A stretch of DNA of 64,000 nt, from the IMG/VR virus record IMGVR_UViG_3300024351_000022. One strand, given 5' to 3'. Numbering within the stretch: position 1 is the stretch's first letter; each line of letters begins with the position of its first letter. The position numbers and the translations under genes are program-made. The notes under the pieces are model-generated. The model was given only the letters and a program-made list of their open reading frames with translations. It made no database searches and was not told the DNA's origin. This document shows, one piece after another, positions 1,820-40,600 of this stretch. This DNA comes from an uncultured virus (IMG/VR IMGVR_UViG_3300024351_000022). Its lineage: Duplodnaviria; Heunggongvirae; Uroviricota; Caudoviricetes.

Positions 1820-4800
1820 TCAGAAGGGGATCTGCTGGGTGGTCGCATGGATGCCCTCGGCGGTCTCGCCGTCTTGGGCGACGACCATGTCGTGCGGTGC
1901 CAGCTCGGCTTCGTAGATCGGGATGAAGATGGATCGGAGGTCTTCATCCATGCTCTTCCAATCGAGGACCCAGAGGCCGCGATGGCTGCCGTCCTTTGGG
2001 ATGCGGAAGCGGTGCTCGCGCTCTTTCTTTGATGGCTTGATCCAGTAGGTCTGGCTCTTGAGTTCACCCTGGATGTTGGATTGGGCGATGGGTGATCCGG
2101 AGCCTTCGCGGCGGCGGCGGTCCACCTGATAGTCGGAGAACAGCTCGGACGGGCGGATGACGACGACCAGGCGGCCGGTGTTAGTCATGAGGCCATCGGG
2201 GATGGGGGTGATCTTGAATCCGTCTTTGTGGGATCCGTCCATCTGGACGCGGAGGACGCGGATGTATTTCTCGGTGCCGGGGATGGATTTCCGGCTGATC
2301 ATGGTGACGCATTCCGAGAAGAAGCGGTTCCGGAAAACGTCCTTTTCAATCTCTGTGTTCGATTCCTCTCCGTGATTGATGAACCACTCGTTCATGGCGC
2401 GGAATTCGACAAAGTCGGGGTGATCTGTGGCGAGGGAGAGGGGTGAGTGCCCGTGCAGGATTTCGTAGGCGGCAGCAATAGCCCCGACAAACAGGCCGAT
2501 GTTTTCGCGGGCGCGTGAGGTGCTGATGCGGTCGATGACCTTGGGGTTCGACTTGAAGGCTCGCATGAACTCCAAGGCGATCCGGGAGAACTTCTTCCGC
2601 TCGCGAATGATGAGGCGGCCGATGCGGTGGTAGTCATCGGAGTCGCGCATCATGCGGTCGAAGCGCTGGTTCCGTTCGATTTCGCGGGCTTGGTCTCGCG
2701 CCGCCCGCTGGCTTTCCGTCTCGTTCTCCGGGATCTGTTGACCGTAGTGAGGGGCGGCGATGATCCGGATGTAGCGGGAGCGTAGGGCGGAATCGACGGC
2801 GCTGTCCTCGCCGGTGGTGATGGCTGGCGTCATGGGCGTCATGGCCCGGGTGAGCTTGCCGCCTTGTGGTGTGCCTTTGTGCTGGGTGAGTTCGTTGTAG
2901 GCGGAGATGAAAAGGTCGAGCATGCGGCTGTCGATCTTGTCATTTCGCCATTCGTCAATGTGGAGGGGGAGTCCGCAGAATCGAGTGAAGGCTCGTTCGA
3001 TCCCGACCTTAGTGGAGCCGAGGGAGATGGGGTCGTAGGAATGGAAACCAAGCAGGCGCATCCCGAATCCTGTGGTCTTGGTCTTACCGGAGCCCTTCTC
3101 GCCTTGGATCGAGATGGAGGGCTTGCCGAAGGCCGGCTTGGCCTCGGGGTGGGTGAGGTATTGGAGGATGCCTGCCACGAGGGCATAACCAGCGTAGCCG
3201 CCGAAGCTGGCCTTGAAGTCGCTGATGGCTGCCTTCCATATCGGCTGGGCATCCCGCTTTTCCTGTTCCCAATCGATATCGTTGAATGCTGCGCGGGGGT
3301 CTTTGGCTCCGGGGAACAGGGATGGTGGGGTGTGGGAGAAGTTGGCCATCACGTCAGAATTGCGGAATCCGCGGCCTTGATGCCACACGATCCCGTCCTT
3401 TTTCGGGAAGAGGAAGGTGCCGGGTTCCTCGCCTTTGCCGTCGGCGATGGCGCAATCGAGGAACAGGTAGAGCTTGTGGTCCTTGTTCCAGCCGTAGGTG
3501 TCGATCTCCGTGATCTCTCGCTGGTGGTTTTCGATGTCGATGTGGCGGACCCACTTGTCGCATTCATCTTGGTTTCCGGACCAGTGATAGCCGCCCATGG
3601 AAATGAAAAATTTCCGAAGCTCCTGCGAGCTGCTCATCCGGTCGGCTGGCATCTGGTAGGCGCGGGAGCGGCGGCCGTTGGCGTCGATGAAAGTGATAAG
3701 GCGATCCAGGCGCGGTTCGCCCTTGTCGTCGTAAGCGAGGATCTTGTATTTGGAAATCGCGGTGAAGTCGGTGAACGACTTGGGGAGTTTGTAGAGGATG
3801 GTGTAGGCGGCTTGCTTGGCGGCGCGATAGCGGCGGAGTTCGTTCTCATCCGCGTTCGGGTCTCCCTCAAGGGCGGCGATGTTTTCGTTGATGTCATCGA
3901 GGGCGGCGATGGCTCGCTTCTCCATGTCCTCGGATGGTGGCTTGATGATGTAGTAGCCGCCAAAGCATTTGCGGAGTTCTTGAGCGATCTTCTTGACCTT
4001 GAGGCGGTGCGCGTATTTCGCGTGGCACCAGTTTTCGATCTCACTCGCGATGGACAGCTCGGTCTTGCCGCCGACGAAAATGTCAGGCTCGTAGCGGAGA
4101 CGGTGGAGTGCCTGTTGGATGACATCTTCCTTGGGGTCAGGCTGGAATGTGCCCGCCTCAAATTGCAGTTGGCGCGGCGACGGCCGCATGGTGGCGTCCT
4201 TGCCGTGCCGTCTTTCAAGGAACTGGAGGAATTCATCCTTGGCGGCATCGATGCCATCGTTGATGCCGCGTTCGCGGACGTGGTATGCCAGCCGTGAGTC
4301 CCAATCTGCTTTGTTGTTTTCCCTCCAATGGTCGGGGAGGTTTCCCCATAGGGATGTGAAACCGGAGTCCTCCAGGCATTCGGCGGTGAAGCGGGCGAAT
4401 GTTTCGGTCTCGAACCGTTCGTGGAAGGGCTTGTGGCTCTTGTCCTCGTTATCGAAGACTACGAGGGTCATGCGGACATCCGCGTTGCGGAGGCATTCCA
4501 CGGTATCGGTGATGGCTTGGCGATGGCTCCGGTTTTGCAGGAAATAGTGGATGCCTTGGAAGTAGAGTCCGGGGACGCCGCAAATCGCGAGGGCCATGCC
4601 CTTGAACTCGCCCTCGCCGATGACGGCGTGGTGCTTCCATGTCTCCGCCCGTGGCATGCCCAGGAGGTGCTTGCCGTAGGGGATGCGGAGGTTGTTGTGG
4701 AGTTTCTCGTAGTGGTCGGCCACCTCCTCTTGTTCCCGCCAGCGGGAGTTGGAGAGGGATTTCTTGTGAGGGCGCAGCAATTCGATGCGCCCGTCTTCCG

Positions 4801-11461: not shown

Positions 11462-13074
11462 ATGACCCGTTTGACGTTGAACGATGGGGTGGAGCGAAGT
11501 TTGCCAGGCCGGAGACGATCTGGACGGAGGGTTTTGGATCGCTTTCACTGGAGATGCCTGCGGTGTCCATGTCGATCTCCGCGAGGTTGCTGCCTGCGGA
11601 TAGGGCGGTCGATTATTACATGGGGGTGGAGGTGCCATCGCGTGGATGTGTGGCCTGCGGGTGGGGGGATAGGAAAGTGGGATCGTCGCGCATCCCGGTG
11701 GGTCCATTCATGGCGCAGCAGGCGGTGGGGCCTGTGATCCGGCCCGTGGTCTTCACTATGCGGTGGGGCAGTGAATGGTGGCTGGATGAATGTGCTCCGA
11801 CGCTGGATGCGTGGTGTGAGCGGCACTCATTGGATCTCAGGGTGGTCGGGGAGTGGGATGCGGCGTATCCTTCGCCCAAGTTTGCCTTTGTGGACATGCT
11901 GCGCGAGTTTATCGCCAGCGGGGAAGAGTGGATGATGTATGTGGATGCTGATGTGGTGGTGCATCCGCTGGCTCCATTGCCTCCGGATCTGGGGGTGGGC
12001 TTGCACGCATGCACGGATAAGCTCCAAAGGCGCAAGGGGCGTGGGCTTTGGGCGGAGTGGTGCCAGGAAAGGTTTGGGGAAGCGCCGGGGGATGAATACT
12101 CATACAGAAATGCCGGGATCTGGCTATGTCATCGCGATGCGGCCGCCGCCTTCCTCGGCATCATTCGCGAGCCCTATCACGAGGGCATCATGGAACAGCA
12201 CCATTGGAACTGGTGGCTCAGCCAGGCGCAAGCTGGTGGTGTCTTCCATGTGGGCGAGATGCCGGTGGAGTGGAATCGTGTGCCGGACGCCGTGGGGCCG
12301 GGATGGATGGTGCATATCTACGGCAAGAACAAGGAGCGTGCCATCACCCGGTTCCGTGAGCGGGGATACATCCCGGATGCGGTGAAGAAAGTAGGGAAGA
12401 TGCCAGCGGTCCCGGACTTCGGGGAAAAGGCCATCGTGTGGCCGTGGATTTCCACCAAGGCGGATTGGGATGAGCTATGGTTTTCCCTGCGCTCGGTGCA
12501 GAAGCATTGGCGGGAAGAAGGCTGGAAGCTGGTGCTCTTGGGAGATAGGCGGCCATCGTGGTGGCCGGGCGAGTTTGTAAAATGTGGCGAGTATGAGCAT
12601 GCGCTTTGGGTTGGCTTGCACTGCGCCAGCCGGGTGCTGTGGATGAATGATGACATCTTCATGTTGGCGGATCAGGGGCCGGATGACTTTTCCGTGGTGC
12701 CTGCGGTATCGAGGATGGAGAGCAAGCTCGGCAGGACTCTCGTGGCGGGGAATGTCTGGCGGCGTGGCCTGGGGCAGGTGCTGATGAGGCTGCATCACCA
12801 TGGGCGGCCGGCGGTGAACTATTCCACCCACACCCCCTACCTCTATGAGAGGGAGCGGGTGGATGAGATTTTCCGGCGCTTTGGGATCTTCTGGAAGATT
12901 CCCTTCGAGACGGCCTATCACGGGTGGTATCAGACCCCATGGGAGGAAATGCACAAGCGCAAGGCGAAGTCTCCGCATGACATGGGCCGGAAGCTGTGGA
13001 TCAACCCGGCATTCGCCCAGGTCACGCAGGCGTTTCGGGATGAGATGGCGTCCCGCTTCGGTCAGCCCTTGTAG
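11458..13074 (+). CDS. Glycosyltransferase (GT-A, DxD) fused to a Stealth-like domain
   Basis: YVDADVVV, YRNAGIWL, EQHHWN; then ELWFSLRSVQKH, WMNDDIF, STHTPY. Confidence 0.7.
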   Translation: MNDPFDVERWGGAKFARPETIWTEGFGSLSLEMPAVSMSISARLLPADRAVDYYMGVEVPSRGCVACGWGDRKVGSSRIPVGPFMAQQAVGPVIRPVVFTMRWGSEWWLDECAPTLDAWCERHSLDLRVVGEWDAAYPSPKFAFVDMLREFIASGEEWMMYVDADVVVHPLAPLPPDLGVGLHACTDKLQRRKGRGLWAEWCQERFGEAPGDEYSYRNAGIWLCHRDAAAAFLGIIREPYHEGIMEQHHWNWWLSQAQAGGVFHVGEMPVEWNRVPDAVGPGWMVHIYGKNKERAITRFRERGYIPDAVKKVGKMPAVPDFGEKAIVWPWISTKADWDELWFSLRSVQKHWREEGWKLVLLGDRRPSWWPGEFVKCGEYEHALWVGLHCASRVLWMNDDIFMLADQGPDDFSVVPAVSRMESKLGRTLVAGNVWRRGLGQVLMRLHHHGRPAVNYSTHTPYLYERERVDEIFRRFGIFWKIPFETAYHGWYQTPWEEMHKRKAKSPHDMGRKLWINPAFAQVTQAFRDEMASRFGQPL

Positions 13075-14186: not shown

Positions 14187-14956
14187 ATGAGGTATCCTGC
14201 TACGCGGTGCCGCTTACCCTCGGCCATAGGGCGTGCGATATGGTCATGGTCTCCATGGCGGCGACCTTGGGAATCCCTGCCGCATCGGCCATGGGTTTCC
14301 TCCATCGTCTCTGGCATGCTGTCGCCATGGACCCGCAAGGGCATCGGGCGGTCCCTGCCGAACGTTCGGCTTGGCCATCGTCTCGCGATGCGTGGGTGCT
14401 TGAGGCCGGTGCTGGTTGGCTGGGGGATCGCGGGGAGCTATTCACCCTCTGGGTGGACTCCGGGGTTATTGAGCTGCATCCCGATGCTGGGGAGGATGCG
14501 CAAATGCGGGTGGTGTTGGTCGGCTGGGCGGATGCCAACCGTCAAGGGCCGGGTGCCAAGAAGCTCGCTGCGCTTGGGGGTATCGCCAAGGCGCGCAACA
14601 GCGCGAGGAAAGTGGCCGAGGGCGATGCGGCGGAGCTGCTGGAGTGGTATCGCCGGAACCGTGTGGGGCTGCACGCGGAAGCGGGTATCGAGAGAGTCAA
14701 GGAGGCGGTGATCTTCGTGCGTCAGATTGAGCGGCTCATGCGGTGGGTGCCAGCCACCGAGAGGGCGTTCATGGAGGGGGCTGTGGAGAAATCCCTCAAG
14801 GCGTTGGACGCTCTTGGGCAAGACAAGGATATGTTCCTGAGCTGGCTGGTGGCAAATCGGGGCCGGGATATCATCCCTGGCCGCGTGGATCTCCTGCTCG
14901 GCGAGGTAGGGAAACTCCACGCTCACGCAAAATCTTGGATGGAGGCCATGCAATGA
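14183..14956 (+). CDS. Hypothetical protein resembling phage replication-initiator N-termini
   Basis: MGFLHRLWH...AGWLGDRGELFTLWVDSG...VGWADAN pattern; coupled. Confidence 0.55.
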   Translation: MNEVSCYAVPLTLGHRACDMVMVSMAATLGIPAASAMGFLHRLWHAVAMDPQGHRAVPAERSAWPSSRDAWVLEAGAGWLGDRGELFTLWVDSGVIELHPDAGEDAQMRVVLVGWADANRQGPGAKKLAALGGIAKARNSARKVAEGDAAELLEWYRRNRVGLHAEAGIERVKEAVIFVRQIERLMRWVPATERAFMEGAVEKSLKALDALGQDKDMFLSWLVANRGRDIIPGRVDLLLGEVGKLHAHAKSWMEAMQ

Positions 14957-16026
14957 TGAAGGCTCTAACGGTAAAACAGCCATGGGCTTCCCTTATTATC
15001 TATGGGGGGAAGGATATCGAGAATCGGTCATGGGCTACGGAATATCGTGGCCGGGTTTTCATTACGGCCAGCAAGGGGTGGAACAGCGGTGAGCAAGAGG
15101 CGGCCAAGGGGTTGATTGAGGACAGGAAAATTCCTCAGAAACTTTCGGAAACCTACACAAGGATTAACTGCGGCGGGGTGATTGGAACCGTGGAGATCGT
15201 GGATTGTGTCAAGCAGAGTGACAGTCCGTGGTTTGTGGGTCCTTTCGGTTGGGTGCTGAGGAATCCGCGCCCGCTGGTTTTCAGGCCGATGAGTGGTGCC
15301 TTGGGGTTATGGGATATGGAATACCCGGAGTCTGCGGTGGGAACCTCCCGGGTGCTGTTCCTGGACGTGGACGGCGTTTTGAATGGTGGCGTCGGCCGTG
15401 GGTTGGATGAGGTCATGCTTGCTCGACTGGGTTCGATCATCCGTCATGCGGATCCGGCCGTGGTCATCTCCTCCTCGTGGAGGATTGAGGCGGAGCTGCT
15501 GCGGCGGATCACTCTTGCGGTGGAGAGGCTTGGCGGGCGCGTCGTCGGTCATACCCCGTTGCCGGAGGAGGTGGGGCAGGGGAGTTGCAGGATCATCGCT
15601 GGAAGGGAGCGCTGGGTGGAGATTCAGGATTGGCTGGATGCCCATCCTGTGGCGGATGGGGAAACTCGCAGGGTGGTGATATTGGATGACGAGGCCGAGA
15701 TGGGTCCCTTGGGTGAATATCACGTGAGGACGGAATACGAAAGTGGCTTGCAGCGGCAGCATGTGGAGCGGGCTTTGCGCTTGCTGCTTGATCCGCCGAG
15801 GAAAACGGGTCCTACGGTATTGGAGTTGGGCAAGTGGTATGTCCTGCGCTCGGCCAGGGGGATCAGGTGGAAAGTCCGGCTGGTGACGATCAGCCCCTGC
15901 GGCAAATACTGTCGGGTGAGTTACTCTGGCAGCGCTGCGGGAGGTCGCCAATGTCTCGCGTCAGAGCTTGAGGACTGGGAGGAAAAGGCCGAGGCGGGCG
16001 GCCGTCTATGGAAGGAGGAGGCGTGA
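14953..16026 (+). CDS. ASCH domain fused to a Swiss-army-knife-type HAD phosphatase
   Basis: KALTVKQPWASLIIYGGKDIENRSW (ASCH); FLDVDGVLN, VVISSSWR, VILDDE (HAD). Confidence 0.82.
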   Translation: MMKALTVKQPWASLIIYGGKDIENRSWATEYRGRVFITASKGWNSGEQEAAKGLIEDRKIPQKLSETYTRINCGGVIGTVEIVDCVKQSDSPWFVGPFGWVLRNPRPLVFRPMSGALGLWDMEYPESAVGTSRVLFLDVDGVLNGGVGRGLDEVMLARLGSIIRHADPAVVISSSWRIEAELLRRITLAVERLGGRVVGHTPLPEEVGQGSCRIIAGRERWVEIQDWLDAHPVADGETRRVVILDDEAEMGPLGEYHVRTEYESGLQRQHVERALRLLLDPPRKTGPTVLELGKWYVLRSARGIRWKVRLVTISPCGKYCRVSYSGSAAGGRQCLASELEDWEEKAEAGGRLWKEEA

Positions 16027-16493
16027 GTAAGTCAAAGAGCGAAGAAGCCATGGCTAAGCGGGCATCTACCGTAAGGAATTGCGGTAATTGCAGATGGGCA
16101 AGTTGGGAGATGACAGAGAAGGGGAATCCTCGTAAGTCTATCGCGGGCAAATGCACGTATCCAATCCCTGACCTGCCGCCCATGCCATACGCTGTGATTG
16201 TCGAGACACCGCGAAAAAGGTTAGTGTGGGCAAACAAGGGAGCCGATTGTCCAACGTTCAGCGAAAAAGCCAAGTCAAGCCCATCGGATGAGATGGCATG
16301 TTCTGCGTCTTCTCTTTTGAGTGAAGCGAAGGAACGCCTATGCGACGCATCCGTCTGCAACCGAATGGGTAAGCCCGCACATTCCGCGGGATACGTGCGA
16401 TTGGCCATGGAGATACTGGCAAAAGCGGAAAAGTCGCTGCTGGGCCTTCCGGGGAACGCCAAAGCGCAGCCACCGACGAGAAAGGAAATCTAA
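16023..16493 (+). CDS. Hypothetical Cys-containing protein; its C-terminus runs into the first attC-like site
   Basis: GTGA-coupled start; CGNC motif; stop overlaps the Lar start (TAATG). Confidence 0.6.
   Translation: MSKSKSEEAMAKRASTVRNCGNCRWASWEMTEKGNPRKSIAGKCTYPIPDLPPMPYAVIVETPRKRLVWANKGADCPTFSEKAKSSPSDEMACSASSLLSEAKERLCDASVCNRMGKPAHSAGYVRLAMEILAKAEKSLLGLPGNAKAQPPTRKEI
16281..16306 (-). repeat. attC-like half-site remnant (R''-L'' arm only)
   Basis: CCATCGGATGAGAT-GGCAT-GTTCTGC resembles the right arms of the complete sites; partner arm not found. Confidence 0.4.
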
Positions 16494-16620
16494 TGGAACC
16501 CCCCTGCAAAACAGAAGACGACTGCCCCACGCCCACATGGTGCCGTGGTAAAGACCGCTGCCCCAAGCGGTATATCAAAGATAAAGCCAATGGGCGGTTG
16601 GCTGGCGCGGATTGTTCGCT
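16451..16620 (-). repeat. attC-like recombination site 1
   Basis: GGGGAAC-N6-GCGCAGCCACCG ... CGGT(T)GGCTG(G)CGC-N5-GTTCGCT; two unpaired bases. Confidence 0.8.
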
Positions 16621-16792
16621 CTTGCCGTGCCCGTTTTGTGGCTCTGAAGACGTGGGGTATTACGCCTATGCAAATGTCATCCGCTGTCATAACTGTGGGA
16701 CGGAAGGCCCGATTGACTCCGAACGCGATCAGGGCCGCGAGGTTGCCGCCGAAGTTTGGAATCGTAGAGCGAACGACCAAGGTATGCCATGA
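16493..16792 (+). CDS. Lar-family restriction alleviation protein
   Basis: LLPCPFCGS...VIRCHNCG...AAEVWNRRA. Confidence 0.8.
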   Translation: MEPPCKTEDDCPTPTWCRGKDRCPKRYIKDKANGRLAGADCSLLPCPFCGSEDVGYYAYANVIRCHNCGTEGPIDSERDQGREVAAEVWNRRANDQGMP

Positions 16793-16865
16793 ATGCCGCG
16801 CCCTCCAGCCCCGCCTCGCCAATGACTCCCACGCGGCAGTCATTGGCATCACCGCCTAGTTCGCC
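16768..16865 (-). repeat. attC-like recombination site 2
   Basis: AGCGAAC-N6-GGTATGCCATGA ... TCAT(T)GGCAT(C)ACC-N5-GTTCGCC. Confidence 0.85.
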
Positions 16866-17355
16866 CCGTTCGCTGAGTGGGCACCAGTCGGCCTGCATGA
16901 AGTCGGAAGTGTGGCTCACGCCACCGGAGATCCTGCAAGCACTCGGCACGTTCGATCTCGACCCATGCGCCCCCGCCGTGAGGCCGTGGGAGATGGCCCG
17001 TGACCATATCAGCTTACCCACCGATGGACTGGCAGCGGAGTGGCGGGGCCGCGTGTGGCTCAATCCGCCATTCGGCACCAAAGCAGCGGCATGGCTCCGC
17101 AAGATGAAGGCGCACGGGAACGGCATCGCGCTAATCCCGGCACGAACTGAAACAGCGATGTTCTATGAAAGCGTGTGGGGCGGTAGCGATGCTGTGTGCT
17201 TCCTCAAAGGCCGCCCTCATTTCCACCGCGTGGACGGCACGCGGGCACCATTCAACAGCGGGGCACCGATCTGCCTCGTAGCCTACGGACTCGACAACGT
17301 GGAGGCACTGGAACGCGCCTCGCTCGGAGTCGTGGTGCGTTGGGCGAACGCATAA
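16789..17355 (+). CDS. Phage Dam-type DNA N6-adenine methyltransferase
   Basis: WLTPPEIL, FDLDPCA, VWLNPPF, LIPARTET, FLKGR; alternative start at 16897. Confidence 0.85.
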   Translation: MNAAPSSPASPMTPTRQSLASPPSSPRSLSGHQSACMKSEVWLTPPEILQALGTFDLDPCAPAVRPWEMARDHISLPTDGLAAEWRGRVWLNPPFGTKAAAWLRKMKAHGNGIALIPARTETAMFYESVWGGSDAVCFLKGRPHFHRVDGTRAPFNSGAPICLVAYGLDNVEALERASLGVVVRWANA

Positions 17356-17430
17356 GCTGATGGACGCCGCCCTCACAGCCCGAATCCAAGATGGAACGTC
17401 CCCGGCGTTCCATCCAGCGCCTTGTTCGCC
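17343..17430 (-). repeat. attC-like recombination site 3
   Basis: GGCGAAC-N6-GCTGATGGACGCCG ... CGGCGT(T)CCATC(C)AGC-N5-GTTCGCC. Confidence 0.85.
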
Positions 17431-18001
17431 TGCGTTGTTGGACGTGTTTTGCGGCGTCGGAGGATGGACGAAAACGTTCATGGCTCGCGGCTGGAACTGT
17501 GTCGGCGTGGACCTCGCGGACTTCTCCGCCAGCTATCCCGGCCAGTTCGTGCAAGCGGATGCGCTGTCCCTGGATCACCAATGGATCAACCAGTTCGACG
17601 CCGTGCTGATGTCCCCGCCGTGCGAGGAATACGCCCGCGCCTGGCTGCCGTGGCTGCGTGGCGACAAGACCCCGGCCAAGTGGGCAATCGATCTGCTGGA
17701 ATGGTCCGTGGCACTCTGCGACCGACCGGGCCGCATGGTGGAATGCTCGAACTTCTCCGCCCGCCACGTCAAGGGCGCGGCCCGCGTGGGAAGCTACTCT
17801 CTCTGGGGTGACGTGCCCCTGCTCATGCGGCAAGTGCCGCGTGGGAAAATGGCGAAGTCCGGAATGCGCCCCGAACTACGCGCCGAGATCCCTGACGAAC
17901 TGGCCCGCAGCGTGGCGGAGTGGTTCGAGGCCGGTCTCGGATTCCGTCTGGCGAACGCAAACAGTGCTGCCACCGGCAGCGAAAGGAACGATCATGAGTG
18001 A
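17360..18001 (+). CDS. Short DNA cytosine-C5 methyltransferase-like protein
   Basis: LDVFCGVGGW (motif I), MSPPCEEY (motif IV); ATG lies inside the attC arm. Confidence 0.75.
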   Translation: MDAALTARIQDGTSPAFHPAPCSPALLDVFCGVGGWTKTFMARGWNCVGVDLADFSASYPGQFVQADALSLDHQWINQFDAVLMSPPCEEYARAWLPWLRGDKTPAKWAIDLLEWSVALCDRPGRMVECSNFSARHVKGAARVGSYSLWGDVPLLMRQVPRGKMAKSGMRPELRAEIPDELARSVAEWFEAGLGFRLANANSAATGSERNDHE

Positions 18002-18049
18002 GAAACTGGAAATCGAAACGCCGGTTGCCGCAGCCACGCCTTGTTCGGC
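17950..18049 (-). repeat. attC-like recombination site 4 (slightly degenerate)
   Basis: GGCGAAC-N7-GTGCTGCCACCGGC ... GCCGGTTGCCGCAGCCAC-N5-GTTCGGC. Confidence 0.75.
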
Positions 18050-18287
18050 TTGCTCGGGAATTCCAGTGAGCGGGACAACTGAAGCACAAGCCCGACAAAT
18101 CAAGGGCAACTCCTATCGCGTGTATCACGGTGGCGAGGGCAGCTCGTTCACAGATCACAACGATCTGGTGATGGCCCGTGCCTCTGCGTGTGGCCACCCG
18201 AATGCCGTCATCCACAACCTGCGTCCATTCAGTCAGCCGAACGCAATAGGTGAGGCACGGCGAGACAAGACGCCGCCTCAACAATAG
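17994..18287 (+). CDS. Small hypothetical cassette protein
   Basis: Start inside attC site 4 after GAAAGGA; stop inside site 5. Confidence 0.55.
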   Translation: MSEKLEIETPVAAATPCSACSGIPVSGTTEAQARQIKGNSYRVYHGGEGSSFTDHNDLVMARASACGHPNAVIHNLRPFSQPNAIGEARRDKTPPQQ

Positions 18288-18322
18288 ACTTTCCCGCCGT
18301 TGCCTCGACCGTCTTGTTAGCC
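18236..18322 (-). repeat. attC-like recombination site 5
   Basis: Minus strand reads GGCTAAC-AAGAC-GGTCGAGG...CCTCACC-TATTGC-GTTCGGC; textbook attC layout. Confidence 0.88.
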
Positions 18323-18353
18323 GTTCGGGGGACGCGGAAACCACAACAAACAT

Positions 18354-18671
18354 ATGGAAACCACAGAAGAAGCAGTAGGCAGAACCACGGAACTCCCGTT
18401 CGGCAATGCAATCGAAGCCCTCAAAGCAGGGCGCCGCGTGTCCCGCAAGGGATGGAATGGAAAAGGCATGTATCTCTGGCTGCTCCCCGCTGCCATGGTG
18501 AAAGCCGAATGGTGCCGCGAACCTCACTTGAAAGAGGTAGCGGAAGCCAATGGAGGTGAAATCGAAGCCCTTGGATCGATCCGCATGATGACCGCAGACA
18601 AGAAAGTCCTAACGGGCTGGCTCGCCTCGCAGACTGACATGCTGGCCGAAGACTGGGAAATCCTCGACTGA
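18354..18671 (+). CDS. DUF2829 / Thoeris anti-defence Tad2-like protein
   Basis: FGNAIEALKAGRRVSRKGWNGKGMYL...GWLASQTDMLAEDW. Confidence 0.88.
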   Translation: METTEEAVGRTTELPFGNAIEALKAGRRVSRKGWNGKGMYLWLLPAAMVKAEWCREPHLKEVAEANGGEIEALGSIRMMTADKKVLTGWLASQTDMLAEDWEILD

Positions 18672-18708
18672 CCAAACATGCCGGACATGGGGCGAGTGCT
18701 CTGTGTCC

Positions 18709-18807
18709 GGCGAACGCACAAGGTCTGCCATGAATGCCGCGCCCTCCAGCTCCGTCCTCGCCAATGACTCCCACGCGGCACTCATTGGCAGCACCGCCTT
18801 GTTCGGG
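18709..18807 (-). repeat. attC-like recombination site 6 (near copy of site 2)
   Basis: GGCGAAC-N6-GGTCTGCCATGA ... TCAT(T)GGCAG(C)ACC-N5-GTTCGGG. Confidence 0.85.
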
Positions 18808-19563
18808 CTTGCGCCGTTTCACCTTGTCGCGTTGAGCGGTGGCAAAGACTCTACTGCGCTCGCTCTTGAGTTGCGCGAACGCCATCCTGAAATCCCGTTC
18901 CGCTACTACATCACGCCGACAGGATGGGAACTGCCGGAAATGTTCGACTGGTGGCAAGAGCTTGGCGAAAGACTCGGATCGAAGATCATCCCTGTGATGC
19001 ACACAAGCCTTGGAGAGTGCATCAGAAACAACAAGATGCTCCCGAACTTCCGCGCTCGGTTTTGCACGCGGCAAATCAAGATCGAGCCAGCCAGAAAAAT
19101 GATGGCCGCGCTCGCTGCTCAAGGCGAAGTGAATCATTACGTCGGCCTGCGGGCGGACGAAGAAACCCGCCTTGGCGGGATCTTCGATGACATCGGAATT
19201 GTGAATCGTCACCCGTTCCGCGAATGGGGCTGGGGAGTAAATGACGTGTGGCAATGTCTCCAACGTCACGGACTGGCGGAACGCATCCCTGAGCGGACAG
19301 ACTGCGACGTGTGCTATCACCAGCAAATCGGCGAATGGTGGAAGCTCTGGACGAACCACCCTGACCGCTGGATGCGTGGCGAGAATCTGGAAATCGAAGT
19401 GGGCGGCACGTTCCGCACGCCAGGACGGGACACCTGGCCGACATCAATGCGCGAACTGCGCCAAGCCTTTGAGTCCGGCAGGATACCGAAAAGCGAGCGG
19501 CAGCCGGAACTATTCTCTCGCGGAACCATGACGGGGGGCGCGTGTCGCGTGTGCTCGTTATGA
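18730..19563 (+). CDS. PAPS reductase-family (PP-loop) protein
   Basis: LSGGKDSTAL, RFCTRQIKIEP, GLRADEETR, CDVCY. Confidence 0.85.
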   Translation: MNAAPSSSVLANDSHAALIGSTALFGLAPFHLVALSGGKDSTALALELRERHPEIPFRYYITPTGWELPEMFDWWQELGERLGSKIIPVMHTSLGECIRNNKMLPNFRARFCTRQIKIEPARKMMAALAAQGEVNHYVGLRADEETRLGGIFDDIGIVNRHPFREWGWGVNDVWQCLQRHGLAERIPERTDCDVCYHQQIGEWWKLWTNHPDRWMRGENLEIEVGGTFRTPGRDTWPTSMRELRQAFESGRIPKSERQPELFSRGTMTGGACRVCSL

Positions 19564-19567
19564 ATTG

Positions 19568-19592
19568 CCCGAACAGTGTGCTTATGCACGGC
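19568..19592 (-). repeat. Terminal core site / attC half-site closing the array
   Basis: CCCGAAC exactly complements GTTCGGG at 18801; followed by an L-box-like CTTATGCACGGC with no partner arm. Confidence 0.6.
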
Positions 19593-19611
19593 AGCGCAAA
19601 CCAAAATCCAG

Positions 19612-19950
19612 ATGGGACTGAAACGTAAAGGATTACAGGCACGCGCCGTCAAGCGGAAGGCGCTGTCGCGCAACCAGGTTGCGGCCAAAGAGAGGCTTCG
19701 CAAAGAGCGATCAGGGGGCGAGGAAGCGCTTGCTGATCGCCTCATGGCCGAGGCGGAAGATTGGGCGCGGCGGAATCCACTGCCGAAACTTCCGCCTGCG
19801 GCCAAAATCAGGATCGAGATTCCGGGGCTGCCTACCAAAGTCATCCGTGCTCGTAGGTGGCACACGGGAGAAGTGCTTGCGGGGAATCGGATCACGACCG
19901 CCAAGCAACTCGGAAGGCGCATTGGGATGCTTCTGGATCAGTTTCTTTGA
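19612..19950 (+). CDS. Basic hypothetical protein upstream of terminase
   Basis: ORF MGLKRKGLQAR... Confidence 0.5.
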   Translation: MGLKRKGLQARAVKRKALSRNQVAAKERLRKERSGGEEALADRLMAEAEDWARRNPLPKLPPAAKIRIEIPGLPTKVIRARRWHTGEVLAGNRITTAKQLGRRIGMLLDQFL

Positions 19951-19996: not shown

Positions 19997-21775
19997 ATGA
20001 GCATCACTTTGCGCCAATCAGAGTTGGAGGAGGCTATTCGTGACCCGGCCTTTGGTTTGTGGATGTTGACCGGCGTGGAACTGGATACGTTCCAGTCCGC
20101 CGCGCTGAAGACGATGTGGTTCACCAAGGAGGTGATCGATTCCAGTGCCATCAACACGGGTAAAACGTTCCGGCTCATTGGGTGGTGTATCCTGCGGGCG
20201 GTCCTGCTGCCGAATCCGCCGTCATTCCGATATCCCGGCCGCCTCATCGGGGCGTTTTACCAGGAGAAGGGATCGGTGGCGGAAATTTTCGTGAAGGAGA
20301 TGGATGCCATGATCTCCTTGCCGGGCGCTGGTTTGCTGCGGCGCGAGCTGAAGCGCCAGGTGCGCGGCCGGCTCGGCTACCACGAGGATGAGAACACGAT
20401 CAATTACCATTTCAGGAATGGCTCCTGCATCAGTGCTCCGGCGCTGAATGTGATGAGGAAATCAAAGACGATGGCGGGCCGCAGATACAGTGATGGCTAC
20501 GTGGAGGAATACACGCAAATCGACTCGGACTCGGATGCGCTGGATGAGCAGGTGCTGGACCGTGTGAACCGCGTGGATTTCAATCCGAAACACCCGGTAT
20601 GGTCGCCGCACATCATCCTTTCGGCCCACGCGGAGTGTCCGGACTCGCACCCGTCCTATGCGCGGATCAAGCAATACAGGGAGCTGATCCGCAATGGATC
20701 GCAAGACCACGCATTGATCACCTCCAGCTCGGAGGACTGGAGCGATAGGAATCCCCTTTTCAAGGTGAAGCGCGAGAAGGCGCTGGCGGACAGGCATCGA
20801 GACTCGCTGAAGCAGGGCAAGGCGAAGGTGGCGCAGAAGCACAAGGGTTTGTGGCTGGCTGGTGGGGCGGATTGGTATGACAACGATTTCCGCGACCACT
20901 GCCTGTGCATGGACATCCTACCCGAAAGCAAGGCCATGCCGGGGGCGCTCTATGCGCTGGGCTGGGACACGGCATCCAGCGGCGGGGAGAAGGCGGACTG
21001 GAATGCCGGTGTCACCTGCCGGGCGATTCCGGTGACGGTCAGGCAGCTCGGGCAGCCGGGGGTGATGCCCTTCGAGAATGGAACCTACTATCATATCTCC
21101 TTCACGCATGCCATCGGTGCGCTGGACAAGCGCTCTGCGGAATGCTCCGGGATCATCCATACGCTGCATCGGTGGTTTGGTTACAGCCGAATCGTCATGG
21201 ACGGCGGTGGCGGCGGGCAGATGGTCAAGAAGGATTTGTGGAGATCCGAGCAGATCATCGAGGGAGTGATGGAGCAGGGCGTGGTTGGCCTGTGCGAGTG
21301 GGGCATGGAGCACGTGTATCCCTCGTGCTTGCCCATCATCCAGGAGTTCAAGCCGACCGCTCCGCGTTTGCTGCACACGTGGGACCCGGGCTTCACGCGG
21401 GGCATGGATGGTTTGGTGGATAACATGCACCGGAAAATGCGGGATGCTTTCGAGACCAGGACCGTGGCCTGGCCAGCCACGGCCGAGATGCGCGGCGCGG
21501 CGGGGATGCGCGGCATGGGGAGAAAGGAGAGGGAGGCGCAGGAGTGGCTGGATCGGGCGTGGGGGCAGTTTGGCTCCGTGCGCATCCGTGCAGAGAAGGA
21601 TGGCCGGGCAAAGCTTACGAGTAATGGGTTCCATTCCTTCGAGGCGAAGGGTAAGCGAAAGAAGGACCTCGCTTACGCGGCGCTCTATGCGTTCATCGGC
21701 ATCATCTCACTGATCACGGACCCTGAGGTGGGGGGGGGTGAGTCGGCGGATGACGAGGATATGTATTCGAGCTGA
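19997..21775 (+). CDS. terL: Terminase large subunit
   Basis: Walker A INTGKT, GYVEE Walker B-like, RNase H-like LGWDTA, IVMDGGGGG, KDLAYA; precedes the portal. Confidence 0.8.
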   Translation: MSITLRQSELEEAIRDPAFGLWMLTGVELDTFQSAALKTMWFTKEVIDSSAINTGKTFRLIGWCILRAVLLPNPPSFRYPGRLIGAFYQEKGSVAEIFVKEMDAMISLPGAGLLRRELKRQVRGRLGYHEDENTINYHFRNGSCISAPALNVMRKSKTMAGRRYSDGYVEEYTQIDSDSDALDEQVLDRVNRVDFNPKHPVWSPHIILSAHAECPDSHPSYARIKQYRELIRNGSQDHALITSSSEDWSDRNPLFKVKREKALADRHRDSLKQGKAKVAQKHKGLWLAGGADWYDNDFRDHCLCMDILPESKAMPGALYALGWDTASSGGEKADWNAGVTCRAIPVTVRQLGQPGVMPFENGTYYHISFTHAIGALDKRSAECSGIIHTLHRWFGYSRIVMDGGGGGQMVKKDLWRSEQIIEGVMEQGVVGLCEWGMEHVYPSCLPIIQEFKPTAPRLLHTWDPGFTRGMDGLVDNMHRKMRDAFETRTVAWPATAEMRGAAGMRGMGRKEREAQEWLDRAWGQFGSVRIRAEKDGRAKLTSNGFHSFEAKGKRKKDLAYAALYAFIGIISLITDPEVGGGESADDEDMYSS

Positions 21776-21860
21776 GCCGAACGTTCGGCTTGGTTTCGGG
21801 TGTTCTGCCCGGCGGAACAAACCTTGACCTTTGGGCGGAGTTCGTGCATGGGGATGGCCG

Positions 21861-32519: not shown

Positions 32520-34526
32520 ATGTCCGAATTCACATCACTCCCCATCCCCGCCGTGCCCGTATCAAGTGTCGCCGCCGCCTTGCGGACTGACATCGAGCTG
32601 CTTAGTCCCGCCGTTGTCGGGCACGAAGAAGCTATTGTGCATTTCTACGACCAGTTGATCGACGCGCAGACCGCCGGCTATCCGGGCGACGGGAAATACA
32701 TCGTCGTCGGTGGTGCAGGCGATTCCATGACATCGGGATCGTCGGCATTTAGCCCGTTTGTCACGCGGGAGTTTCTCCGCCGTTTCGGGCAAGGTGCAGT
32801 GGCTTCTGCATTTTTGGGTGGGTCGGTTACGGTCGGCACCGGGCAATTCTCGATGACGACGACGCTCGCGGGCAGTGCGGTGGCAACGAGCGAGAGTTTC
32901 ATTTACCTTCCGAATGGGGATTATTGGACAATCCCAGCGGGTGGATCTGTAACCGAGACCCCGAACTCGGCAAACATCCACGCAGGGTTTCGGCGGGTTC
33001 GCTGTTGGTATGGCATCCGATCTGGAGGTGGATCGCTCACATTCACGGTGACCCAAAACGGTGCCGGTCTCACACCCAAAGTCGTAAACACCGGAGTCGG
33101 CACGCCGAATACCATCGGGTATGTCGATTTTGATTTTGCGGACGGCCTCGTCGTAAACGGGAAGCCCATTCTACAAGTCGCGGCATCGGGAGGAACGTGC
33201 CACTACCTCGGCAGTTACATGTATCTACAATCCGGCTTTGTTCCCGTGTCTCTTGGGCGAGGCTCCAGTTCCTATGCCCAGGCGCTGACTGGTCCCGCGG
33301 CGAACCTTGCGACGTTCTGCTCGGCCATGGACGTGCGGTTGATTTTCCACGCGGTGAAAGAAGAGGATCTGACCTACAATAACCTGCGTACAATGATGGA
33401 CCGCTGGGCAACTCAGCATCCGCGTTGCTCGCACATTTGGGTCGGCGCAACGCCATCCCCGAGCGCTGGCGGCGTCAACGACGTGAACAGCAATGCGGCG
33501 ATGCAGGCCAAGTGTCTCGAACATAAAATGGCATATGTTGATGGGCAAAGACTACTGCGTTCGGTCGCTTACATGGGCACTATTGGTCCTGCCTCCGATG
33601 GCTGGAATGAGTCACCAACGGCCCCACACTTGTCCCTTCCTGCTCGTCGTTTCATCGCTACCTGGGTCATCGACAAATTGCTCCTGGGTCTGCAAGTGGC
33701 CGGCGGCCGTCAGTCGAACGTGAGCGAGGAGACGCTTCGAATGGACATGCTGCGTGACACTCGGGTTCGAGTTGGCATTTGGGCGCAAACGTCCTCGACC
33801 TACGGTGGGTCAAACTTCACACACGTCACTCCCGACTTCGGTCGGATGACATTCCGCATGACTGCGTCACCAGCTCCGGTGGCGAACTCTGGGCGGGGTG
33901 GCAAAGTGGCCCATCTTGCGCCAAACATGGCGCAACGAATGATGATCGGCTACCGCATAACCGACGGAAACCTGATTGACGGGGTTTTCGCCTCTATCGT
34001 TTTTTCTGGTGGCGGACCACAAGAGGTGGGTGGACTCGTAAACAGTTCGTTTGGGGGGTTCCGGATTATTCACGGCGTTGATACTATCTCGGGTCAGCCG
34101 GTGCCATTTATCCAGTTCGCGGTTAAGGGCTCAGGCACGTCTGAAACGCTGTCTCCGAAAATCTATCACTCGTCTGCGACGGGGGTGGCTCCGTTTGCTG
34201 GTGGTGACTGGAATGCTGGCGAGAACATTTATTGGATCGAGTATTTCGGCGGCGGAACCTCGCCCACCAAACGATTCCGCGCCTGGCACGAACCGTGTGC
34301 CGCAGGATCGTCGTCCACCCGAGTTGCGGCCCGCCGCATGATCGCAGACTGGAGTGGAAACATCACAGTCGGCGGAACAGTAGATCCGTCTGTTTATTTC
34401 GGACTCTACACGTTGGGGTCTCCAGGAACCCCCGGAGGAGTCCGCGATGTGGCTTTGTCGAATCTCTGGGTGGACCACTCGCCACCGTTCGCGGCCGACC
34501 TGACGCAGTCGGATATGCAGTATTGA
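32520..34526 (+). CDS. SGNH/GDSL esterase-domain tail spike / receptor-binding protein
   Basis: GDSMT nucleophile motif and a later PHLS; codon usage differs from neighbours. Confidence 0.65.
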   Translation: MSEFTSLPIPAVPVSSVAAALRTDIELLSPAVVGHEEAIVHFYDQLIDAQTAGYPGDGKYIVVGGAGDSMTSGSSAFSPFVTREFLRRFGQGAVASAFLGGSVTVGTGQFSMTTTLAGSAVATSESFIYLPNGDYWTIPAGGSVTETPNSANIHAGFRRVRCWYGIRSGGGSLTFTVTQNGAGLTPKVVNTGVGTPNTIGYVDFDFADGLVVNGKPILQVAASGGTCHYLGSYMYLQSGFVPVSLGRGSSSYAQALTGPAANLATFCSAMDVRLIFHAVKEEDLTYNNLRTMMDRWATQHPRCSHIWVGATPSPSAGGVNDVNSNAAMQAKCLEHKMAYVDGQRLLRSVAYMGTIGPASDGWNESPTAPHLSLPARRFIATWVIDKLLLGLQVAGGRQSNVSEETLRMDMLRDTRVRVGIWAQTSSTYGGSNFTHVTPDFGRMTFRMTASPAPVANSGRGGKVAHLAPNMAQRMMIGYRITDGNLIDGVFASIVFSGGGPQEVGGLVNSSFGGFRIIHGVDTISGQPVPFIQFAVKGSGTSETLSPKIYHSSATGVAPFAGGDWNAGENIYWIEYFGGGTSPTKRFRAWHEPCAAGSSSTRVAARRMIADWSGNITVGGTVDPSVYFGLYTLGSPGTPGGVRDVALSNLWVDHSPPFAADLTQSDMQY

Positions 34527-37567: not shown

Positions 37568-37603
37568 GTTTGGCGGTGATCCGGAGCCGAACGTTCGGCA
37601 AGG

Positions 37604-40600
37604 TCAGAACGAGGCGGAGCCTGCGCCGGTGGTATCCGGGGAGGTGGATGGGGCAAAGACCTTGGCGAGGCGCTTCTCCATGGCGGCCATCTCGCGCTTG
37701 ATGTAGCTGCGGGTGAGGCTTTCCACTTCCTTGGTGACTTCCACGGAGACGGTGATGGCATCGATATTCACGTTCACCTGCGGCTGCATGGTGGCGAGGT
37801 CCGGAGGTGTCTCCAAGGGGGTCTGAGGCAGGGCGAAGGCACCGCCGGGACTGGTGAGTTCGGTGATCTTGTTTGCGAAGTTCTCCAACTCGGCGCGGAA
37901 GGACGGTAGGGACTTGGTGATCTGATCGAGTTCGCCGGTGAGTTCCTCGCGTTTGGTGGCGAGGTCGCGGTTGAGTTCGGCGATGGATTCATTAAGCGAG
38001 TCCGGAGGGGTGGAGTTGAGAGACTCCAGGGTGCGCGAGAGATCGGGCAGGATGCTGCGAAGGCGGTTCAATTCGGCATCGATCTCGCCGGGCCGTGAAT
38101 CTGGCTTGTTGCGGCCGGAGCCTTGGTCTTGCTGGAGGAAGGGGAATTGGCCGGGGAGGTAGTTTGCGGCTGTCTGTCTGGTCTCCGGGGAGAGGTAGAA
38201 GAATTCATCCTGCGAGATGGGTCCGGTATCGCGAAGGGTTCTGGCCAGGGCGGCGGCGCGAAGTTGATCTTCCCGATCTGCCATGAGAAGGCGCTTGGCC
38301 GCCTCGTCGGTCTGGTTTCTCTGCTCCTCGGTGATTTCGCGTTCGAGTCCTGCGCGTTCCTGAAGGAGCGATGCCTCGCGATCCATGAGGGAGTAGGCAA
38401 GCTCCTCGGCTTTCTGGCGGCGCTCGGCGTATTCGGCGATGCGTTCGGTTTCCTGAGCGCGGTCGCCGCTGCTCGGGCTGTTTTCGATCTCCTGCATGCG
38501 GGAGAGATGGCGCTGGAGTTCGCTGAATTGCTGGTCGGTCTGGTTGGCGTTCGGATCGAGGGAGCGGATGCCATCCAGCCTCACGCGCATGCCGGCCATG
38601 CGGCGGGCGCGTTCATCGGAGTCCCCTTGGCGGATGGCTTCGAGGTCCTTGGCGGATTGGAGGGGGAGGTTGGCGAGGTCCGTGTGGAGGGTGTTGCTAC
38701 GGCCTGTCATGCTGGCGATGATAGCCCGCATGCTTTTCTCGTATTCCAAGAGCTGGCCAAGTGCGCCTTGGCTTTCCGTGCCAAGGGGGATGTGAGGGCC
38801 AGTGGTGGCGATGCTGTTCCCTTCTCCGGCGATGCCACGGAAGGTGGCGATGTTCCGATCTGTATCGGTGAGTCCGATGCCGAGGCGGGCGGTGAAGTTC
38901 CGGGCGATTTCCGCGCCTGCGGAGATGGCTTCCTGAATGTGCAGGGTGCGCTCCAGGATGGCGAGTTTCTTCTCGGCCGCGTCCACGGCTTTCTGTTCGG
39001 CGAGGATCTCGGTATCGATGCGGGAGAGGATCTCATCGCGCTTGGCGATTTCGTCATCGAGGTCGGTTGCGCCGGAGTCGCGCTTTTTCTGGAGGTCGGC
39101 GAGGCGGGAGCTTTCATCGAAGCGGAGGGAGTTCAGGGCATCGAGCGTGGAGCGTGCGTTGGTCTGGCCGACCATGATCTGGCGGGAGATGGGAGCGACT
39201 TCGCCGCCGAGGATCTTTTCGCGGAGCTGGTTGAGGGTCTCCATTTCCCCGCGCAGGCTGGCAAACCATTGCTCCAGAGGGGCGAACGATTTGACTGCTT
39301 GGCTGGCAAGTTCATTGGCGTCTTGCTTGGCGGACTGGAGGGAATCGCTGAGGGCCTTGGTTTCCTTCTGGGCGTCTTCGAGCTTGTCGGTGAGTTCATC
39401 CCATTTCGCGGTGCCGGGTTCGGCATCGGAAAAGCTGGCGGCAATCTCGGACTCCAGGGATTGGGCTTCGCCGAGGAGACCTTCGAGGCGCGAGACCTCG
39501 GCGGTGCGTGCGCGCTCAAATGCTTCAAGGATGGATGCCTCGTGCTGCTTGGCATTCGCGGTGAAGGCGTCCAGCCCGGCGAGTGCGGTGGACTTGTCTC
39601 CGGATTGGATGGCGGAGCGGGTGCCGGTGTAGTTCTGGGCGAAGGTCATGCCGCCGCCGGGAAGTGAGCGCTGGGACTTTGCCAAGGCTTCAAAGTCCTT
39701 GCCGATGGCGATGGGGTCGCCGCCGCGTTCGATCTCTGCGCGGACGCGGGCGAGGCTTTCCAGAAGGCGAGGGACGGCCGCTGCCCGTTCGCGGAGGGCG
39801 GAGAGAGTATCGATGGCGTTGGTGGTTTGCTGCTTGTCGATAGCGGCGGCGATGGAGTCGAGGTCGGCAGAGTCGAAGGAGCGGATGCCATCGAAGGTGC
39901 TGCCTCCTCGGAAGTAGTGCCTACCAAGGATTTTTTGGATCATGCCGACGTTCTTGCCGTCAACCATGACATCCTTCCCGGCAAAGCCAGTTTCGCCGGA
40001 GTCGATCATGCGCTTGATCTCCATGGCAATCTTTTGCGCCTGACCGAGTTCGGTGGGGGTGTAATCCCGGCGGGCGGTGCGGAAGAAACCTTCGTGACCG
40101 CCGGTGAGGAAGGCAAGGTCCTCGCGGAGATTTCGATCCTGCACGGGGTTCGCGCCGATGTTCTGGCGGTTCTTGTTGAGTGCCCCGGTGATTTCATCGA
40201 TCTGCCGGGTGAGTTGGCTGAGCTGCTGGGACATGCTATCGATGACGCCGGTATCGCCGATGGCGGACCAGAGGGCGGTCCACTCGGCGGCGAGGGATTG
40301 GAGCTGGCCGGCGAGGGAGTCGGCGATCAGTTGGTTTTCCCGGAAAGCGGAGTTGGTATCCAGGGCGGCTTCGATGGTGAGCGCTTGGGCCTGATTGAAA
40401 TTGCCAAGGATCTCGGCGAATTTCGAGGCTTGGCGTGATCCGGCCGTGATGTCGAGGAGCCGCTTCTGTTCGTAGGAGTTGAGCGTGGGATAGAGGGCGG
40501 CGAGGTCTTGGAGGATCTCAAGGTAGGATTTCATGTCCCCGGTGGGGCGGGTCATGTCGAAGTTGAACGACTCCTTGAGCTGCTTGATCGTCTCGGGACG

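Follow-up and report, generated by a model that had tools for sequence, protein, structure and literature searches.

Introduction

Integrons are bacterial gene-capture platforms, and recent preprints reportedly describe integron cassettes that store anti-phage defences. Here the same machinery is found in a prophage with counter-defence and DNA-modification genes (Lar, two methyltransferases and Tad2). It lies in a 64,000-nucleotide (nt) stretch of DNA from an uncultured virus (IMG/VR record IMGVR_UViG_3300024351_000022), which we call the window. Our reading, which we hold to be probable, is that six attC sites in the window form a reversed array of six cassettes that ends in an attI remnant and has no integrase, that its genes lie on the attC bottom strand, and that a single codon phase is kept at the AAC core of each site.

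Integrons and clusters of attC sites without an integron integrase (CALINs) have already been published from phages, including some with methyltransferase cassettes (Qi et al. 2023, PMC9892861). As far as that account goes, the window array resembles them in its imperfect hairpins with AAC...GTT ends, extra-helical bases, one-strand arrangement, phage carriage and DNA methyltransferase cassettes, and in the IntI and attI of its relatives. It differs from the CALINs described there in that its genes lie on the attC bottom strand and point to attI/intI, the attC is translated and stands at the 5' end of its gene, the R boxes are GGCGAAC/GTTCGCC, and the open reading frames (ORFs) span the crossover. 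Integrons with an inverted integrase, such as those of Treponema (Cury et al. 2016, PMC4889954), likewise have intI and cassette genes on one strand. In the cases treated in that paper, however, intI is inverted relative to the attC sites, whereas here intI, attI and attC keep the classical arrangement and the genes are inverted.

Translation through recombination sites also has precedents. A review (PMC8876359) treats ORF-11 of attI1 and relates that short ORFs in attC relieve hairpin blocks (Hanau-Bercot 2002; Jacquier 2009). As in the present array, ORF-11 runs across the recombination point to a stop provided by the adjacent cassette, and termination followed by reinitiation has been proposed to carry ribosomes through the attC structure. 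Unlike the single short leader at attI, or the ORFs inside attC, covered by that review, cassette genes are involved here, at every junction and in one codon phase. In class 1 arrays, upstream translation governs the expression of the downstream cassette, and the stop codon of most resistance cassettes overlaps attC (Carvalho et al. 2024, PMC11511950). Those cassettes are in classical orientation and driven by Pc, and the portion of that paper drawn on here reports neither a start in attC nor a frame rule. Synthetic attC sites placed in arbitrary sequence (Nivina et al. 2020, PMC7439510) illustrate, like the present ones, that attC structure tolerates other sequence content; unlike the engineered sites described there, the natural sites of the window encode protein tails and leaders. 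A reversed, translated attC design and a codon-phase rule were not found in the integron literature searched; the phage CALIN tables of Qi et al. (2023) may already include reversed arrays.

A family of imperfect hairpins

A sequence-only reading of the window had called the sites attC-like. This description was borne out, and it is strengthened by the integron integrases beside related arrays, the flank complementarity and the cassette-sized deletion variant described below. The sites occur in a co-directional run of ORFs that spans 16.4-19.6 kb of the window (Table 1). Six sites, S1 to S6, lie within 2.4 kb, all on the plus strand; at least two sites on one strand within 4 kb were taken to define an array. 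A generic finder of AAC...GTT hairpins returned S2, S3 and S5 together with coding-region noise elsewhere, and a covariance model was used instead. The model (R1) was trained on 11 sites that did not include S4 and S5, and it recovers both. In the window it finds five sites (S2-S6, at 16.7-18.8 kb) and nothing elsewhere, and it detects arrays of two to six sites in other viral contigs. S2, S3, S5 and S6 are long imperfect hairpins closed by CGAAC/GTTCG, with fold z-scores from -2.05 to -3.96, and the fold of S4 by itself is not significant (z +0.33). S1 was missed by R1, and a free-energy fold also fails to close it. Read by eye, its arms are GCGC.AGCCA.CC and GG-T-TGGCT-G-GCGC, which gives two surplus bases on the 3' arm, and its long variable loop holds TAA 16491, GAAAGGA and the Lar ATG 16493 (TAATG).

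Across 29 distinct sites, the AAC and GTT ends are invariant save for one GAC. In these sites 94.6% of the cells pair, as opposed to 27-43% when the partner is slid. Compensatory change occurs at 20 of 23 pairs in an alignment fitted to the model, and at 13 of 23 in an independent run of MAFFT and RNAalifold. Non-Watson-Crick pairing is confined to five G.T and four A.C among 610 cells, both equally rare, and this almost pure Watson-Crick pairing suggests a constraint at the DNA level. Copies of the S2 type are 88-95% identical in eight viral and three genome contigs whose flanks are unrelated. In the eight IMG/VR contigs that contain a 21-mer of S2/S6, the conserved block begins exactly at AAC and ends exactly at GTT, again between unrelated flanks. 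Exact copies of GGCGAACGC number three in the 64 kb, all inside the array.

Other searches and ideas gave less. The pattern GGCGAACGC..CGCCTTGTTCG occurs at 16 loci, with window-like hairpins by eye in L009, L015, L017, L021 and L023 (the sequence of L015 is identical to that of L009); the other loci have the appearance of chance matches. L043 gave no match to R1. No Rfam family reached the gathering threshold in the window, the two matches in 16300-19000 were at chance level, and no tRNAs were found in the window. On a 5.7 Mb metagenome-assembled genome (MAG; G009), 150 of 4071 candidates were scored with R1, and no conclusion is drawn from it. A miniature inverted-repeat transposable element with target-site duplication was set aside because a 7-nt direct repeat occurs at S3 only and not at the other sites. 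Translational bypass was dropped because the site ends are inverted, not direct, repeats, and a conserved leader peptide because indels alter the leader peptide.

One codon phase at the AAC core

Five ORFs in the window read the core AAC of a site as an in-frame asparagine (Asn) codon (GN, AN, AN, AN, PN), a configuration with p ~0.004 when five of five ORFs share one frame. The sequence-only reading had reported these five, and its coordinates for the Asn codons, stops and starts all agree with the sequence. It had also proposed that the frame is standardised so that any cassette order stays translated, which frame bias across homologous arrays could check. A census was made of 30 distinct sites, namely S1 and 29 R1 matches in the window and nine other contigs. 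The upstream ORF has AAC as a codon (frame 0) at 22 sites and runs contrary at one (L025), while three sites are ambiguous and four have no ORF that extends into the site. AAC is an in-frame Asn codon, therefore, in 22 of 23 clear cases, a count in which the sites are related to one another and so not fully independent. L044 adds two further frame-0 cases beyond the 30 sites. The GTT end occupies all three codon frames, in the ratio 13:10:7. Frame standardisation at AAC is supported, and the proposal fits these counts well.

The next start usually lies in the same site, as had been claimed, with the Tad2 ORF (start at 18354) as the exception. The window junctions read TAATG, ATGA, TAAgctgATG, ATGagTGA and ATGA, and the ATGs at 16493 and 17994 are the two preceded by GAAAGGA. 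In the wider set, stop and start are at most 10 nt apart at 18 of 22 junctions, eight of them ATGA overlaps, and these close junctions span subtypes of differing sequence (ATGA, TAAGCTGATG and ATGNNTGA). The ATG of S2-type sites is in frame with the downstream gene in seven of seven contexts, which involve six different genes. One- and two-base indels change the leader peptide or frame of these sites, and the frame of the ATG is still kept. Domain matches start directly past the attC site. The ATG is paired in the consensus fold, and in the largest class of sites, which have no clear Shine-Dalgarno sequence, it is part of the paired stem.

Translational coupling of neighbouring cassette ORFs is probable from this arrangement of stops and starts. 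A rival explanation, which we consider unlikely, accepts reversed cassettes without functional coupling. In this explanation the AAC frame only provides a nearby stop or reflects how the cassettes are made, and the genes initiate independently. The GAAAGGA and ATG in the loops of S1 and S4 would permit such initiation, and in the Tad2 cassette the ORF has a stop of its own and a start outside the site. The S2-type sequence could also impose the phase for a simpler reason: its frame 2 fuses the ORFs and its frame 1 stops only at +49, leaving frame 0 as the safe frame. Independent initiation is less easily reconciled with the close stop-start spacing in subtypes of differing sequence, or with a largest class in which the ATG is stem-paired and has no clear Shine-Dalgarno sequence.

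Genes on the attC bottom strand

In the account of Nivina et al. (2016, PMC5027507), the crossover falls between A and C of AAC (written AA/C below) on the bottom strand, where extra-helical bases lie opposite the AAC triplet. In all 29 sites studied here, the 3' arm of the coding strand, opposite AAC, is the longer one. The excess amounts to two bases in 24 of them, and a T is conserved. The aadA1 attC of plasmid R100 served as a control and, read by eye, is asymmetric in the same way on the coding strand of intI1. It is followed, also by eye, by ...TTTAA/C, the constant part of attI1, and then intI1. Because the R100 control matches these sites, the attC/attI/intI geometry is classical and only the genes are reversed.

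The integrase itself is present in related contigs. Full-length IntI proteins score above the 265-bit cut-off for integron integrase of TIGR02249 (NCBIfam) in G005 (331.8), G006 (346), G008 (268.2) and G010:C39 (269.9). In these four contigs the intI start is preceded by the nearest attC at a distance of 240-1030 nt, and attC, ORFs and intI share one strand. In the interval that separates the last ORF from intI, G005 and G006 have in common GCCGAAC joined to AGTGATTA(T/A)CC, and at the equivalent place G008 has GGCTAAC joined to AATGATTAACC. These sequences are putative attI sites. The pattern in G005 and G006 is a variable part ending in ...GAA and then a constant CAGTGATTA adjoining intI. 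A remnant at 19572 of the window has CCGAACAGTG in common with the conserved pre-intI sequence of G005 and G006.

Two side observations concern the same contigs. A second attI-like copy, GCTGAAC joined to AGTGATTATCCAGAAC..., stands on the minus strand of L049 at about 3022 (G005 near 32.7 kb). It has no neighbouring intI and lies some 350 nt downstream of an isolated attC (G005 33099-33194). In L046 (G002), a 71-amino acid (aa) ORF at 11974-12189 on the minus strand contains YAGWICRFAAHVK and resembles the N-terminus of G005 IntI. It lies inside the G002 array and adjoins ORF tails that end in DYPEHLSR, the attI-encoded tail. TIGR02249 gave no match on this ORF, which is probably a decayed intI.

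Three observations indicate that the coding strand is the attC bottom strand: where the extra-helical bases lie, where intI and attI are placed, and the 859-nt variant described below. With the genes on that strand, the AA/C crossover falls inside the last codons of the upstream ORF, and a crossover there explains why the frame is fixed at AAC and free at the GTT end. The sequence-only reading stood on the attC-like nature of the sites and on frame standardisation but missed this underlying reason. Absent from it as well was the point that each start codon belongs to its own cassette.

Genuine attC sites in the classical orientation, with the genes on the top strand, a crossover between G and TT, and the start and leader in the preceding cassette, appear improbable. 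AAC and then GTT follow each ORF in textbook-like manner, and the coding strand is C-rich, as has been reported for top strands. The surplus bases lie on the arm opposite AAC, however, in agreement with the R100 control, and intI and attI are downstream on the same strand. The GTT end is also unstandardised, so that two of every three fusions would be broken by shuffling there, and the PAPS cassette terminates at an AAC that has no hairpin.

Cassette boundaries and population variants

A hallmark of cassettes is that the R-box halves on either side of a gene match each other. Six bases after GTT were compared with the six before the next AAC (or attI) in 27 cassettes, and on average 4.67 of six are complementary. 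The controls gave 2.59 of six within one site (32 sites) and 2.62 of six over all pairs, and a permutation test gave 0 of 20000 for the complementarity across the gene. The R-box halves that flank one gene thus belong together, as expected of circularising units. In the window, the right flank of S1 (CGCTCT) is complementary to the left flank of S2 at six of six positions, and the left flank of the attI-like remnant to the right flank of S6 at five of six.

The last cassette gives the clearest boundaries. L008 has the same PAPS-reductase-like gene, ending in GCCCGAAC joined to AAGTGAATCAC. It is 88.5% identical to the window over 18721-19575, and the two are unrelated beyond this block. Together with GCCCGAAC joined to AGTGTGCTTATG after the PAPS stop, the block predicts a cassette of 859 nt from C18715 to A19573. 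It ends at an AAC without a hairpin. In river metagenome contigs, a joint from 18710 to 19570 omits 859 nt, with five letters (CGAAC) in common between its ends, and both the skip and the block shared with L008 correspond to C18715 to A19573. A 771-nt river metagenome contig departs from the window at 18717 and returns at 19571, and its path is probably that of a replacement cassette. In run X18, depth over the PAPS stretch is 3.6-7.6, about a third of the 21-23 on the flanks, and the three paths (7.6 + 5.4 + 7.06) approximate the flanking depth. Ends of contigs accumulate at 17351, 18715/18717 and 19571/19574. Gain and loss at the AA/C core are seen here in contigs rather than in reads. Three alleles (cassette present, absent and replaced) appear to coexist at the attI-proximal slot in river samples.

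It is very improbable that the sites are not recombination sites but regulatory or processing RNA hairpins, or selfish repeats spread by phage homologous recombination, for although S2-type copies are 88-95% identical in unrelated contexts and no Rfam match was obtained, IntI is associated with the arrays, flanks are complementary across genes, a cassette-sized variant occurs at CGAAC and G.U pairs are nearly absent.

Further variation was noted in the same samples. A contig joint from 17351 to 19633 in runs X18 and X16 omits 2281 nt. One side comprises only 23 letters, the right end is off the core, and the joint is unexplained. The Dam cassette has two haplotypes, about 10% apart over 16860-17250 (noted at 16890-17220), which occur together in runs X16 and X19. 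In the sediment metagenome run X17, a PAPS-cassette contig continues past AAC (19574 on) with GCAGAGCTATCCGACCGATG..., which resembles the beginning of a further attC more than it does the attI remnant.

Proposed mechanism

In the direction of translation, a cassette of this reversed array would consist of C, the attC body, GTT..., the gene body and ...AA. The bottom strand, which also carries intI in the relatives, would fold and be cut between A and C of AAC. The crossover would fall within one of the final codons of the upstream ORF, to which the next attC would donate the last residues and the stop. Within a few bases, the same attC would supply the start codon of its own gene and a leader of 25-40 residues. 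Ribosomes that end in the 5' arm may open the hairpin and then reinitiate; the sequence-only reading had suggested that ribosomes could melt hairpins which might otherwise halt transcription. Since AAC is kept as a codon in all cassettes, any order gives terminated ORFs with overlapping stop and start. The array may be transcribed as one operon, and its present mobility may depend on IntI supplied in trans.

Several points weigh against this reading or parts of it. The R boxes are commonly GGCGAAC and GTTCGCC/GTTCGGC and depart from RYYYAAC/GTTRRRY, as the bases adjoining the AAC and GTT triplets are mostly G and C, not Y and R. S1 is identified by eye. The arm lengths used to assign the strand derive from a model-fitted alignment. 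The coding strand is not the stabler fold (mean +0.35 kcal/mol, stabler in 12 of 30 sites), and its base composition is a mixed marker, C-rich in 26 of 30 sites yet A-rich in 23 of 30, where the C-rich strand is reported as the top strand in the mobile-integron attC sites covered by the literature consulted. No intI was found in the window, where the tyrosine recombinase at 48618-49766 scores 25.6 bits on TIGR02249; having no integrase gene, the window array is a CALIN. The contigs behind the 859-nt joint extend for 25 letters on their short side, and their intervening path is not known. For coupling, the loops of S1 and S4 and the Tad2 cassette count in the same direction, and RNA-library contigs over the region are unable to show transcription. 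A promoter and terminator scan of 13-22 kb found nothing beyond the shuffled expectation.

A broader proposal has about an even chance of being right. It holds that phages maintain a mirror-image cassette pool of their own, made up largely of DNA-modification and anti-defence genes, in which attC donates start and leader to its own gene and a stop to the preceding one. The AA/C crossover would be kept in one codon phase, so that an integrase could assemble any set of these cassettes into a seamless, coupled operon, a process that appears active in nature. A recombination site within coding sequence, with its crossover in a fixed codon, would be a natural standard by which operons are put together seamlessly. 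In such arrays, cassette boundaries and gene starts call for different annotation. The array also provides material for tests of how attC structure coexists with translation, and of the origin of cassettes with a 5' attC.

Features of the array

Table 1. Open reading frame, attC sites, cassettes and attI-like remnant of the array, with positions counted from the first letter of the window.
Feature	Position	Strand	Core or length	Content	Detail
ORF	16008-16493	+		Family unknown	AAC 16455 read as Asn (GN); stop TAA 16491 inside S1
attC S1	16451..16621	+	AAC 16455-57, GTT 16614-16		By-eye reading
Cassette 1	16457..16773	+	317 nt	Lar-like restriction alleviation ORF 16493-16792	Pfam PF14354, E 3.9e-10, match begins aa 43, directly past attC; PHROG 599; AAC 16772 in-frame Asn (AN); ends inside S2
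attC S2	16768..16865	+	AAC 16772-74, GTT 16859-61		R1 107.6 bits; DNA fold z -3.96; TGA 16790 overlaps ATG 16789 (ATGA)
Cassette 2	16774..17348	+	575 nt	Dam-type DNA methyltransferase ORF 16789-17355	PF05869; PHROG 111, E 3.7e-35, match from aa 30; AAC 17347 in-frame Asn (AN); stop TAA 17353
attC S3	17343..17430	+	AAC 17347-49, GTT 17424-26		R1 69.5 bits; DNA fold z -3.07; TAA 17353, then ATG 17360 (TAAgctgATG)
Cassette 3	17349..17955	+	607 nt	Methyltransferase ORF 17360-18001	PHROG 363 and 757; 74% nucleotide identity to L015/L009 cassette gene, beginning at 17418; AAC 17954 in-frame Asn (AN); stop TGA 17999
attC S4	17950..18048	+	AAC 17954-56, GTT 18043-45		R1 29.3 bits, E 2.3e-5; loop contains GAAAGGA and ATG 17994; TGA 17999 (ATGagTGA)
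Cassette 4	17956..18241	+	286 nt	97-aa ORF 17994-18287, family unknown	No match in Pfam, PHROG or NCBIfam; AAC 18240 in-frame Asn (PN); stop TAG 18285
attC S5	18236..18329	+	AAC 18240-42, GTT 18323-25		R1 48.8 bits; DNA fold z -2.29; TAG 18285 inside site; no start codon within S5
Cassette 5	18242..18714	+	473 nt	Tad2-like anti-Thoeris ORF 18354-18671	PF11195, E 1.1e-22; exception: start 18354, 23 nt beyond S5; stop 18671, before S6
attC S6	18709..18806	+	AAC 18713-15, GTT 18801-03		R1 112.9 bits; DNA fold z -2.05; TGA 18731, in AAC frame, overlaps ATG 18730 (ATGA)
Cassette 6	18715..19573	+	859 nt	PAPS-reductase-like ORF 18730-19563	PF01507
attI-like remnant	19567..19590	+		GCCCGAAC joined to AGTGTGCTTATG	End of array, no intI after it

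Genomic context and other repeats

The array occupies an accessory region of a prophage-like element. Its surroundings include a DUF927 primase-like gene, a tape-measure gene (37604-42640), an endolysin-like ORF and the tyrosine recombinase mentioned above, which is not an integron integrase. Large ORFs without family matches begin at 19997, downstream of the array, and the tape-measure gene and the endolysin-like ORF follow 16-18 kb further on. A search for relatives through the 592-aa ORF at 19997-21775 found none in viral or metagenome contigs. The ORF at 14743-16026, directly upstream of the array, has ASCH and HAD 'Swiss Army Knife' domains of RNA-repair type (PF04266, PF18143). Two Acidobacteriota MAGs and a bin with the label Pseudomonadota contain the S2-type 21-mer, and DNA of the window is present in riverine metagenomes.

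A 14-bp perfect palindrome, GCCGAACGTTCGGC, occurs in 11 copies with at most one mismatch in the window, against 0.04 expected (at 691, 6474, 14357, 21776, 28550, 37586, 46114, 51897, 57403, 61954 and 63740). The copy at 21776 is one base past the stop of the ORF at 19997-21775, and that at 37586 is separated from the 3' end of the tape-measure ORF by 4 nt. The palindrome equals both attC R-box halves joined with nothing between them, and it may serve as an operator, form a terminator-like hairpin or act as a secondary site of recombination. Another repeat links 2375-3107 and 49923-50655, which are 86-90% identical and 47.5 kb apart. Both lie in DUF927 primase-like ORFs, and the duplication suggests two related mobile elements in the window.

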